From NCBI RefSeq assembly GCF_054482525.1, contig NZ_CM137006.1: a stretch of 64,000 bases of DNA. One strand, 5' to 3'. Of the stretch, positions 57,201 through 64,000 are shown piece after piece. The first letter of the stretch is position 1, and each line of letters starts with the position of its first letter. Position numbers: made by a program.

Positions 57201-60200
57201 TGGAAAATTATCAGGATTCACCTTCAAATTCACTTGAATGTTACGCTTAATTTCACCCAGCAGTTCTTCATGTGTGGATTTTATTATCCCTTTCTCATAA
57301 TCGATAAATACACACATGTTCTTTATGAATTCAAAACCTTTTCCTGTATACAGTTTAATGAATGCCACCAGAGCAAACATTTCAAGATATAGCCATAATG
57401 CCACGTTAGTTTTTTGCAAAGTATAAAAAATTGAATTCGCCACTCTTTTACTTATTGCTCTTCTATACTGTGATCGGGCAAGATTCAGTAGCGGAAGCTC
57501 TCGTTCAATAAATGAATGTGAAAAGACTGGATAAATTGATGTCGGAAACCTTTCAGGTCTTATGATATTTTCTATTTCCACCATAAATCTATCCATAGAA
57601 AGAAAGTCACTTTCTTTTTTTATTCTGGTATAGAGACCGCCTTTATTCCTTTCTGAGGTTTGTTTTCGTGCTATCCCCCCCAACACTTTCTCTAATTGTT
57701 TATTTATCTTCGTATAATTAAATACAACCATTCTTCTTATCATCCTCGGAAGGATAATAATATCAGTGCTTGAATCACTTGAGCGGCAATTATTATTTAT
57801 CCATGCAACTTCAAGTTGCAGTATCGGAACATTAACTTTTCTGGGGTGAATATCTCTCTGATATCGTTTTTTGTATGCGTTTTCATTAAGATATTCTCTG
57901 CTGTAGAGAAACTTATAGCAATATAATCTGATAATATCTTTTATGTAAAATTTAAATAGTTCACCTGTAACAGATATATGTTTTCTGCTCAGTAACTCCT
58001 GTGTATTAAGCCATTCCCGTGACCGAAGCACACCCTTGTGAGAACTTTTTCTTACTTGCTTTGAAGCACGCCATTGATGTAATATTTTTGTGTCCTCAAT
58101 AATTCTCTTTCCCGTTTTATTTTTTGCAGCATCTCTTACTCTATAAAATATCTCCCAGTCCAGACTTTTGTCATATCTACTAATTATACGACAAATATTC
58201 CTGACCCGACGATTCTCTTTATTTCGCTTCCATAGCTTATAATGATCATCGCATAACCTTAAGGCATTTGCCTCATCAAATTCTGAAACAGGATTACTGC
58301 ATTTTTTATTCCGACAGATACCTTTGTTTTTAGCCATACTCTTCTTCCCGTCAATGGAAAATTTTTCACACCCATATTACCTGAATGATAAACCGGATTA
58401 GTGTGATCCGGTTCAGCGAAATCAACAGGATAACGGTATGTCATTCAGCCATTTTTCCCTCTCCGCACAAGTGAAATCATATCTGACGTTTCTTCCTGAA
58501 GAAATTCGCCAGAAAATCCTTGAACATCTCCACGGTGTTATTCATTACGAGCCCGTGATTGGCATTATGGGTAAATCCGGCACCGGCAAAAGCAGCCTGT
58601 GTAATGCCATTTTTCAGTCCCGTATCTGCGCCACGCATCCCCTGAACGGCTGCACCCGCCAGGCTCATCGTCTTACCCTGCAGCTCGGTGAACGCAGAAT
58701 GACGCTGGTCGATCTGCCCGGCATTGGTGAAACACCGCAGCATGATCAGGAATACCAGGCGCTTTATCGTCAGTTACTGCCGGAACTGGATCTGATTATC
58801 TGGATCCTGCGGAGTGATGAACGTGCGTATGCTGCCGATATTGCCATGCATCAGTTTTTACTGAATGAGGGCGCAGATCCCTCGCGCTTTTTGTTTGTTC
58901 TCAGCCATGCCGATCGCATGTTTCCTGCTGAAGAATGGAATGCCACAGAAAAATGCCCGTCCCGTCACCAGGAACTCTCACTGGCGACAGTAACAGCCCG
59001 GGTGGCCACCCTGTTCCCTTCATCATTTCCGGTACTCCCTGTAGCCGCGCCTGCAGGCTGGAACCTTCCAGCGCTGGTGTCACTGATGATCCACGCGCTG
59101 CCACCACAGGCAACCAGCGCAGTTTATTCACATATCCGGGGGGAAAACCGCTCTGAACAGGCCCGGAAACACGCACAACAGACTTTTGGTGATGCCATCG
59201 GGAAAAGTTTTGACGACGCCGTTGCCCGGTTCAGTTTTCCGGCCTGGATGTTACAGCTTCTGCGTAAAGCCCGGGACCGCATTATCCACCTGCTGATCAC
59301 ACTGTGGGAGCGTCTGTTCTGACACACTCACGCCGACAGGATGTGTCGCTGGATTAACGAGCATTCTTCTTTTTATGAAATCCTGCTTAAAAATCAGATA
59401 ATTAAAAGAATATTTTTTCTGCTGCATTTTATTCCTGATTATCCGGATGCGACACATCCTTTCAACATCATGATGCATAATAACATCATGAAATAAAAGA
59501 TGTTTTCTTACGGAGTGCACATCTATGTCTGATAATCGTTCCCGGCATGATCGCCTGGCGGTTCGCTTATCACTCATTATCAGCCGACTGATGGCCGGAG
59601 AATCTCTGTCACTAAAAACACTGTCAGATGAATTTGGCGTTACAGAACGTACTTTACAGCGCGATTTTCATCAGCGTCTGGTTCACCTGGATTTAGAGTA
59701 CAGAAATGGCAGGTACAGCCTCAGACGACAGAGCAGCCCGGGTGCGATCCCTGAAATGCTTTCTTTTATACAGAATACCGGTATCGCACGGATACTTCCG
59801 CTCCGGAACGGACGACTGATAACCTGTCTTACCGACAACCAGGAGCCCTCTCCCTGCCTTATCTGGCTACCGGCGCCGGATATCACTGCAACGTTCCCCG
59901 AGTATTTCTCGCAACTCATCCTGGCAATAAGACAGTGTAACCACATCTCTCTGATGACTGAGCGATGGTATCCGTCACTGGAGCCCTGCCGGCTCATTTA
60001 TTACAGCGGTAGCTGGTATCTGATCGCGTTACAGAAGGGAAAACTGCAGGTCTTTCCTCTGGCAGATATCAAATCAGTCAGCCTGACATCAGAACGGTTT
60101 GAACGGAGAGGCCACATCCACAGTCTGGTCGCTGAAGAGCGTTTTATCTCCGCCCTGCCACATTTCTCTTTCATCCATAAACTTATCAACACCTTTAACC

Positions 60201-63200: not shown

Positions 63201-64000
63201 ACCAGAATCAGCTGATTGCCGGTGAAACCCTCTTCACCGGCACCATCAACCGCACAGAAGTCCATCCCCGGGAAGTGATTAAACGCGCCCTGTATCACAA
63301 TGCCGCAGCCGTGGTGCTGGCACACAATCACCCGTCCGGTGAAGTCACTCCCAGTAAGGCAGACCGCCTTATCACGGAACGCCTGGTACAGGCACTGGGC
63401 CTGGTGGATATCCGGGTGCCGGACCATCTGATAGTCGGTGGCAGCCAGGTTTTCTCCTTTGCGGAACACGGTCTGCTTTAACCCGTCACCGCCACAATCA
63501 CATCACACCTGTTTTCACTTTTATCTTCCGTCTTCAGAGGTATCCTATTATGAAAATTATCACCCGTGGTGAAGCCATGCGTATTCACCAACAACATCCG
63601 ACATCCCGTCTTTTTCCGTTCTGTACCGGTAAATACCGCTGGCACGGCAGTGCTGAAGCGTATACCGGTCGTGAAGTGCAGGATATTCCCGGTGTGCTGG
63701 CCGTGTTTGCTGAACGCCGTAAGGACAGTTTTGGCCCGTATGTCCGGCTGATGAGCGTCACTCTGAACTAATGTTCCGTCACCCGGAAAACGAGTACGAC
63801 CAGATGACCTCAGACGCCGCTGTGGATGAGGCCCTTCTCATCAATGAATACATCTTCACCGAAGCCGGTCTCCACACCGGCTGACCTGTCATCGTTAACC
63901 CCTTCTTAACCGATTTTCTGTGAGGACTTTATCGTGTCAGACACGCACCATGAGACAAATTATCCCGACGACTATAACAACCGCCCCTGGTGGGGGCTGC

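Follow-up and report, generated by a model that had tools for sequence, protein, structure and literature searches.

Close described relatives of the locus studied here are found in Escherichia coli K-12, where three toxin-antitoxin pairs lie in a shared region near the attachment (att) sites of their elements (PMC5371832). In CP4-57 (yfjP...ypjF) and CP4-6 (ykfA...ykfI) this block of genes is integrase-distal and beside the att site, and a YagK/YfjJ gene lies upstream of the block (PMC5371832). Our locus occupies positions 58438-64000, at the right-hand end of the window, by which we mean the whole stretch of 64,000 nucleotides that was analyzed. Taken with a leftward part that reaches to about 54889, it is very probably the integrase-distal backbone of an island of the P4-integrase type ('CP4-like'), forming the right end of a pheV island of extraintestinal pathogenic E. 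coli with sfa/foc, hlyCABD, cnf1 and fec. The flanks are described from relatives that are 99.5-99.8% identical over the shared parts.

Similar runs of genes are present in pathogenicity islands. In Shigella flexneri 2a's SRL pathogenicity island, orf46-orf57 encode a YfjP/YeeP GTPase, YfjQ, YfjX/KlcA, YeeS, YeeT and YeeU, with YeeV, a YeeW-like protein, DUF957 and DUF4942, and the island also carries a fec operon (PMC6980539). In that island Ag43 lies inside the run and the resistance genes lie elsewhere. [quoted passage not shown] This pheV layout of yeeUV module, pheV' copy, group 2 capsule and gspM-C is the same in the closest relative of our locus. The island here differs in its sfa/foc, hly, cnf1 and fec cargo, with a K1 (neu) capsule in the relative, and in an extra 9-kb deletion mediated by the insertion sequence (IS) IS1. 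Earlier work has already described the gene families, the module shared with K-12, the occurrence of this module in SRL and in pheV islands, and the position of pheV' before the capsule.

The ten-gene block and its K-12 relatives

Open reading frames (ORFs) were listed over 54000-64000. The interval 58438-64000 is an unbroken + strand run of ten that continues to the window end, at the place given in the original prediction, and the RefSeq annotation of the closest relative names these genes in this order. The features of the block are listed below, each with the match or scan on which it is based.

58438-59322, + strand: YfjP/YkfA/YeeP-type GTPase (MMR_HSR1 5.7e-15, Dynamin_N 6.4e-10)
59323-59524, no strand: intergenic spacer with a pair of 15-nt inverted repeats (repeat scan, RNA fold)
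59525-60205, + strand: helix-turn-helix (HTH) and WYL regulator, YfjR-like (WYL 4e-05, HTH_11 6.6e-05)
60353-61030, + strand: exported protein of 225 residues (no family; signal peptide)
61036-61269, + strand: DUF905 protein, YkfF-like (PF06006 1.3e-31)
61290-61319, + strand: terminator-like hairpin, 13 pairs and a T-run (consensus scan alone)
61359-62177, + strand: DUF932 protein, YfjQ/YafZ-like (PF06067 2.7e-51)
62177-62422, + strand: four-cysteine protein of 81 residues (no Pfam family; conserved family)
62516-62989, + strand: ArdB/KlcA-family anti-restriction protein (PF03230 9.1e-37)
63005-63481, + strand: RadC-like JAB/JAMM metalloprotease, YeeS/LfgB-like (PF04002 1.4e-44)
63550-63771, + strand: DUF987 protein, YeeT (PF06174 1.9e-39)
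63934-64000, + strand: CbeA/YeeU-family type IV antitoxin, first 22 codons (DNA identity to the relative)

The window proteins were compared with CP4-44, CP4-57 and CP4-6 of strain MG1655 using tblastn. DUF987 is 100% identical to YeeT, and the RadC-like protein is 98.7% identical to YeeS, 82% to YkfG and 78% to YfjY/LfgB. Identity is 76% for DUF932 (to both YfjQ and YafZ), 66-74% for the ArdB-type protein (YafX/YfjX), 65% for DUF905 (YkfF) and 43% for the WYL-HTH protein (YfjR), falling to 34% for the GTPase (YfjP and YkfA, E = 5e-56 and 8e-54). These identities show that the family assignments of the original prediction are correct; Pfam and solved structures agree, and the proposed relationship to the three K-12 elements stands.

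In the distal half the block and CP4-44 (yeeP-flu-yeeR-yeeS-yeeT-cbeA-cbtA-yeeW) are of nearly the same DNA lineage, with YeeS and YeeT followed by a CbeA-type antitoxin. The yeeP pseudogene of CP4-44 is homologous to the GTPase gene of the block. By contrast, flu (Ag43) and yeeR are not in the block, and CP4-44 has none of its WYL regulator, exported protein, DUF905, DUF932, four-cysteine protein or ArdB. CP4-57 and CP4-6 have in common with the block the GTPase, DUF932, WYL-HTH (YfjR) and DUF905 (YkfF, or the ypjI pseudogene) genes, together with ArdB-type (YfjX/YafX), RadC (YfjY/YkfG) and DUF987 genes and a type IV toxin-antitoxin pair. The identities to these two lie in the range 34-82%, and the integrase, as seen in the relatives, is about 84 kb away compared with 12-30 kb. 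The exported protein shows no significant similarity to YfjS, YfjT, YafY and YkfB of CP4-57 and CP4-6, nor to YeeR, in BLASTP comparisons.

The distal order of five genes (ArdB-type, RadC-like, DUF987, antitoxin and, in the relative, toxin) is the same as in the K-12 elements. The proximal order differs: in CP4-57 and CP4-6 DUF932 comes directly after the GTPase, but in the window the genes for the WYL regulator, the exported protein and DUF905 precede it. Such variants of order occur in other genera. The claim that the gene order reproduces the CP4 module is thus correct for the distal five genes, and incorrect for the position of DUF932 and in the lack of flu and yeeR.

Only the start of the antitoxin gene lies in the window. 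Its 22 codons are 59% identical to the N-terminus of CP4-44 CbeA, and end just past the start of the Pfam domain. The final 229 nt of the window, spanning the start of this gene, are identical to a 45-kb locus of the relative NZ_CP031215.1 (locus L001). There the complete antitoxin of 122 residues matches CbeA_antitoxin (PF06154, 5.5e-54) with the domain beginning at residue 18, and a CbtA_toxin gene (PF06755, 5.9e-62) lies 89 nt past the antitoxin gene. The toxin that had been expected just beyond the window is therefore seen in the closest relatives.

To measure the prevalence of the block, 58438-64000 was used as a megablast query on 5,426 complete E. coli genomes. Matches were found in 4,915, and at least 80% of the block is present in 1,603 of them, which rules out a chance assembly of ten genes; the median is 3 copies per genome. 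The top match is NZ_CP031215.1, from a human isolate of sequence type 80, with 99.5% identity over 100% of the query. These data also bear on the reading that the block is decaying prophage debris without function. Insertion sequences, pseudogenes and a truncated dGTPase gene lie nearby, and yeeP is a pseudogene in CP4-44, but all ten ORFs are full length against RefSeq models, excepting the antitoxin cut by the window end, and five of the exact protein sequences occur on hundreds to at least 1,000 contigs. Moreover, other genera retain the core order although their proteins are only 35-65% identical, and catalytic motifs are intact on reading the translations: the P-loop (GKSGTGKS) and DxxG (DLPG) motifs of the GTPase, and the JAMM motif HNHPSGEVTPSKAD (HxHx7Sx2D) of the RadC-like protease. 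We regard functionless debris as highly improbable.

The probable pheV island and the IS1 deletion

The window is collinear with NZ_CP031215.1 over positions 1-47192 (99.77% identity), and over 46671-53106 and 53874-64000. In that relative the order is yqgA, tRNA-Phe (pheV), a gene for a 421-residue integrase, sfa/foc fimbriae, another fimbrial cluster, hlyCABD and cnf1, and then a two-component system, fecABCDE-fecIR, IS1F, an IS3-family element and a dGTPase-family gene. These are followed by H-NS, a ProQ/FinO pseudogene, an AlpA-family gene, two YagK/YfjJ genes, the gene for a 407-residue protein, and the block. Past the block antitoxin come CbtA, DUF5983, DUF957 and DUF4942 genes, an IS110 fragment, the kps/neu K1 capsule cluster and yghD-gsp. 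In a strain that lacks kps (locus L007) the module abuts yghD-gsp directly.

The tRNA-Phe gene and integrase of the relative sit beside yqgA-speC, about 84 kb upstream of the block and about 16 kb beyond the start of the window. The integrase is of the P4 family, with Arm-DNA-bind_3, Phage_int_M and Phage_integrase domains. At the other end, about 110 bp past DUF4942, a fuzzy search found a repeat of the pheV 3' end, TTCGATTCCGAGTCCGG-CACCA, of 22 bp and matching at 22 of 23 positions with one deletion (28072-28093 in L001, 34531-34552 in L007). On the basis of this layout and the terminal pheV' repeat we conclude that the block is very probably the integrase-distal terminus of an att-bounded pheV island of about 92 kb. 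Extrapolation to the genome of the window would place the pheV' repeat about 2.5 kb past base 64000 and the integrase about 16 kb before base 1.

The window itself contains no tRNA (ARAGORN) and no pheV 3'-end repeat, and tblastn with IntA, IntF and the pheV integrase of the relative finds nothing in it or in the 45-kb L001. The original prediction had anticipated that integrase and tRNA attachment site would both be missing from the window. It had also described the block as the backbone of a cryptic prophage. A prophage standing alone is not supported: in the relatives the block is the last segment of a pathogenicity island inserted at pheV, and their annotation contains no phage structural, packaging or lysis genes. 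Ten proteins were scanned against PHROGs, comprising eight from the module (those from the GTPase to ArdB, and DUF987), the 407-residue protein and the YagK/YfjJ protein. None matches a phage structural or lysis family, which argues that the block is not phage-like. The classes obtained were 'unknown function', 'replication initiation' and 'moron/host takeover', the last for the anti-restriction protein and for a weak ABC (ATP-binding cassette)-transporter match of the GTPase.

A further insertion sequence lies between the fec cargo and the block.

53106-53873, + strand: IS1 copy of 768 bp with both terminal inverted repeats (InsB ORF 53355-53858, DDE_Tnp_IS1 2.3e-78)

Its flanks, GGGAAACT on the left and CAATTATTG on the right, show no target duplication and correspond to positions 6436 and 15437 of L001. 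The IS1 therefore marks an adjacent deletion of 9.0 kb. The deleted segment held the 3' quarter of the dGTPase gene, an H-NS paralogue, the ProQ/FinO pseudogene, the AlpA-family gene (Phage_AlpA 2e-10), the second YagK/YfjJ gene and five hypothetical genes, one of them lost in part and leaving its remnant at 53869-54321. The deletion took internal island backbone, not an integrase. The IS1-associated rearrangement that had been predicted is accordingly present, with 9.0 kb missing, while the replacement of the integrase side by IS1 is not supported, as the integrase side appears simply to be distant in relatives and outside the window. The deletion is a strain-level detail. The dGTPase-family anti-phage gene (52159-53105, + strand; the ORF is listed as 52138-53127) is cut by IS1 at 53106. 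The remnant matches the PADLOC dGTPase model (2.2e-92) and has an HD domain, but only about 316 of 410 codons are left, and the gene is probably inactivated in the lineage of the window. The deletion, which includes the AlpA-family gene, probably lowers the ability of the island to excise.

The insertion sequences also raise a different history for the block. It could be the remnant of a separate CP4-like element with its own integrase and att site, to which virulence and fec DNA was joined by IS rearrangement that erased the integrase side. This stays alive because the interval from fecI to the dGTPase gene, the first gene of backbone or cargo, is exactly where IS1F and a frameshifted IS3-family element are found. 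The AlpA-family, two YagK/YfjJ and H-NS genes, typical of the left part of a CP4 backbone, are to the right of those copies and so away from the pheV integrase, and in compact relatives in other genera AlpA and YagK/YfjJ are within a few kb of the GTPase. In addition, pheV islands have been described as mosaic (PMC7387560). Yet searches of the window and of loci L001, L002 and L003 turned up neither a second integrase homologue nor, apart from the tRNA gene itself and the terminal repeat, any internal copy of the pheV 3' end, which argues against a recent fusion. The terminal repeat matches the tRNA gene that is beside the sole integrase, and the IS1 of the window deleted internal backbone and no integrase. 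We consider a separate element possible, although doubtful.

Several points weigh against our preferred reading, of a backbone that ends a pheV island. The toxin, pheV' repeat, integrase and tRNA of the window genome are extrapolated from relatives of 99.5-99.8% identity, and the distant pheV integrase and the module may or may not have arrived as one element. The exact IS1 junction is absent from the complete-genome collection, where the top matches cover 72-89%. The proposed operon structure depends on a consensus scan for hairpins. Functions are, throughout, predicted by homology.

Elsewhere in the window, cnf1 (1014 codons) and hlyCABD lie at 22049-33443 on the - strand. The hlyA ORF is full length at 1024 codons in the window, whereas the annotation of the closest complete genome gives it as frameshifted. 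IS1F (49928-50713) adjoins fecI, as in K-12, and is followed by the frameshifted IS3-family element (50783-51707), the two forming the boundary between fec cargo and CP4-type backbone; an IS3 fragment 82% identical to the latter lies at 20282-21193. The spacer that lies upstream of the sfa/foc regulatory genes has a match to the Rfam family AS-pc02 ('antisense to pHK01_099') at 3101-3279 on the + strand (63 bits). An isrC match (5836-5958, - strand, 135 bits) was considered as a sign of a second CP4-44-type remnant and was rejected, because it lies inside an IS3-family orfA (ORF 5643-5990) with no similarity to the isrC region of K-12.

Leftward backbone and properties of the genes

Between IS1 and the GTPase gene there are four further features.

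53869-54321, - strand: hypothetical gene next to IS1, truncated at its 5' end to 150 of 175 codons (matches L001 15339-15866, cut at 15437)
54889-55620, - strand: YagK/YfjJ ('inovirus Gp2') gene (YagK_YfjJ_C, PF11726, 1.9e-37; REP_ORF2-G2P, PF23343, 5.7e-08)
55621-57113, no strand: AT-rich stretch of 1.5 kb with no annotated gene (GC 0.34-0.44)
57114-58337, - strand: gene for a 407-residue protein, divergent from the GTPase gene (GC 31-38%)

The original prediction placed the left limit of the backbone at 58438. Its content from there onward is confirmed, but the conserved backbone begins further left, including the 407-residue and YagK/YfjJ genes, to about 54889. In Citrobacter and Klebsiella michiganensis, the genes for homologues of the 407-residue protein (34-37% identity) point away from the GTPase gene across a gap of about 95 bp, and the AlpA and YagK/YfjJ genes come after them. 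Because these homologues keep the same divergent position, we assign the 407-residue gene to the backbone rather than the cargo. The protein has invariant N-terminal C8, C13, C29 and H32, and the motifs SREWxNTQEL, SREYL and IRRMV. It has no match in Pfam, NCBIfam, PADLOC or PHROGs, and its AlphaFold2 model is poor (pLDDT, predicted local distance difference test, 55.9). The truncated gene at 53869-54321 has no family match.

The YagK/YfjJ protein is about 30% identical to K-12 YfjJ and YagK. Residues H101 and H103 (HYHV) and Y213 and K216 (YLVK, the Y-x-x-K motif) are invariant in nine members of the family, and the copy in the window has an extra insertion of roughly 40 residues. By its motifs it is classed as an HUH-type Rep-like protein. 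Within the AT-rich stretch, which is upstream of the YagK/YfjJ gene, there are short direct repeats of the AAAACACCA type, families D1 and D2, at 55853-56196, and there is no AlpA remnant between the YagK/YfjJ and 407-residue genes. The YagK/YfjJ gene and the repeat stretch could be a pair resembling a Rep and its origin.

Loci in other genera were located through homologues of the exported protein. The core order is AlpA, YagK/YfjJ, a variable slot, GTPase, exported protein, DUF932, (ArdB), RadC, DUF987, CbeA, CbtA, (DUF5983, small ORF) and DUF4942, and it is maintained at the protein identities given above. The WYL regulator, DUF905, ArdB and 81-residue genes are optional inserts. The core module, with AlpA, YagK/YfjJ and DUF4942, is present in Klebsiella, Citrobacter and other genera.

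Returning to the block, this comprises at least two gene groups, split by the terminator-like hairpin at 61290-61319. The first is the GTPase, followed by the WYL regulator, exported protein and DUF905. The second is DUF932, the four-cysteine protein, ArdB, RadC-like protease, DUF987 and antitoxin; the toxin would follow past the window. Promoter-like sites in the region are not above the level of shuffled sequence, and there is no credible Rfam match in 53800-64000. NCBIfam scans of the family-less block proteins and of the downstream genes gave nothing useful.

For the GTPase family, a literature search found no functional study. Its C-terminus has a weak PADLOC match to LeoBC. The WYL regulator has HTH_11 at residues 14-48 and WYL at residues 152-185 (Pfam), and matches two PADLOC WYL models (2.6e-18 and 7.6e-07). 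With the upstream dGTPase, these are the only PADLOC matches; no known defence system was found in the module. The spacer between the two genes (59323-59524) has an RNA fold z-score of -5.76 and contains inverted repeat I2 (59335-59349 and 59449-59463), whose arms are 93% complementary and 99 nt apart. The first arm includes GACA-N5-TGTC, and GGACA-N5-TGTCC is found upstream of yfjR and ykfK in K-12. The spacer may therefore contain a candidate pair of operators or a structured leader for the WYL gene. Since GACA-N5-TGTC is not enriched across the window, we take the operator idea as a lead only.

The exported protein has a conserved signal peptide ending SA-x-A before GNW, and four cysteines that are invariant across genera. 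Its family is limited to Enterobacteriaceae, and is always embedded in this module. It has no family in Pfam or NCBIfam and no sequence match among solved structures. The AlphaFold2 model is acceptable (pLDDT 79.6) and has two domains; a search of the PDB with Foldseek yielded no matching fold at E <= 0.001, just a local NTF2/cystatin-like resemblance of the C-terminal part. DUF905 matches the YkfF structure (PDB 2HJJ, 1.1e-28).

The 81-residue ORF is a real gene, translationally coupled to DUF932: its ATG overlaps the DUF932 stop codon (TGATG). A Citrobacter homologue of 86 residues (51% identity) is in the same coupled position, and the gene is lacking in some E. coli variants of the block. 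The protein has six cysteines, of which four are invariant across Enterobacterales, spaced CxxC-X12-C-X21-C within the invariant motif RSISDDDLCxWC...C...C. Family members have 80-87 residues and occur in at least seven genera of Enterobacterales, namely Escherichia, Citrobacter, Enterobacter, Klebsiella, Salmonella, Yersinia and Mixta. The protein belongs to no Pfam or NCBIfam family. Some databases call it 'antirestriction protein', a label that has no domain support.

The anti-restriction protein matches the structure of CFT073 ArdB (2WJ9) at 7.8e-108 over all 157 residues and that of KlcA of IncP plasmids (2KMG) at 1.6e-20, and by sequence would seem to differ from these in no notable way. 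The spacer between the DUF987 and antitoxin genes has an unremarkable fold (z = -1.43).

Proposed role of the module

ArdB/KlcA proteins (2WJ9, 2KMG) relieve type I restriction in vivo, and MreB is among the proteins on which CbtA-family toxins act. Interaction of these toxins with FtsZ has been reported, and they are neutralised by CbeA-family antitoxins (PMC5371832). The five distal genes of CP4-57 are organised as a single operon, yfjXY-ypjJ-yfjZF, and protease activity of the RadC-like LfgB toward MqsA has been reported (PMC10846083). By homology, ArdB would shield incoming island DNA from type I restriction. CbtA, by inhibition of FtsZ and MreB, could make up an addiction or stress module with its CbeA antitoxin. 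The RadC-like JAMM protease and DUF987 genes may be in one operon with the toxin-antitoxin pair, by analogy with CP4-57, and the WYL-HTH protein is a putative local regulator. Given these inferred roles of ArdB, toxin-antitoxin pair and WYL protein, the module would help the island to become established and to be retained, and would not perform phage functions.

The same genes could be understood as an anti-defence or establishment cassette of conjugative or mobilisable type, resembling a leading region and accompanied by a rolling-circle Rep, that would be expressed on entry of the island into a new host and would not be concerned with retention. The near identity of the ArdB/KlcA-family protein to the solved CFT073 ArdB would fit such a cassette, as would the failure of the scanned proteins to match phage structural families, and the invariant HUH and Y-x-x-K motifs and REP_ORF2-G2P match of the neighbouring YagK/YfjJ protein. 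One paper is said to discuss anti-restriction and RadC domains as conflict domains of phages and conjugative elements. On the other hand, the annotation of the window shows no relaxase, oriT, coupling-protein or transfer genes, and a toxin-antitoxin pair suits retention at least equally well. We think such a cassette unlikely, and prefer the terminal backbone of a pheV island serving both establishment and retention.

A broader idea can be put forward tentatively, and we give it a rather small chance of being right. CP4-type backbones might be a coherent working family of mobilisable islands inserted at tRNA genes, rather than relics of prophages. They would have three working parts: a YagK/YfjJ HUH Rep that acts on the adjacent AT-rich repeats, a conserved divergent pair of the CCCH 407-residue protein and the GTPase, and an operon controlled by the WYL protein that contains the exported, four-cysteine and 407-residue families. 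Together these could constitute a system of establishment or anti-defence.

For annotation, the value of the analysis lies in placing the right end of the window, very probably, within the terminal backbone of a pheV pathogenicity island. This predicts that CbtA, DUF5983, DUF957 and DUF4942 genes and the pheV' repeat would be found downstream of the window, and the integrase and pheV upstream. The IS1-mediated loss of 9 kb of backbone, the AlpA-family gene and part of the dGTPase gene included, may have fixed the island in place. Finally, three proteins that are very common in E. coli, the exported protein of 225 residues, the 81-residue four-cysteine protein and the 407-residue CCCH protein, belong to no family and yet are conserved in position across genera.

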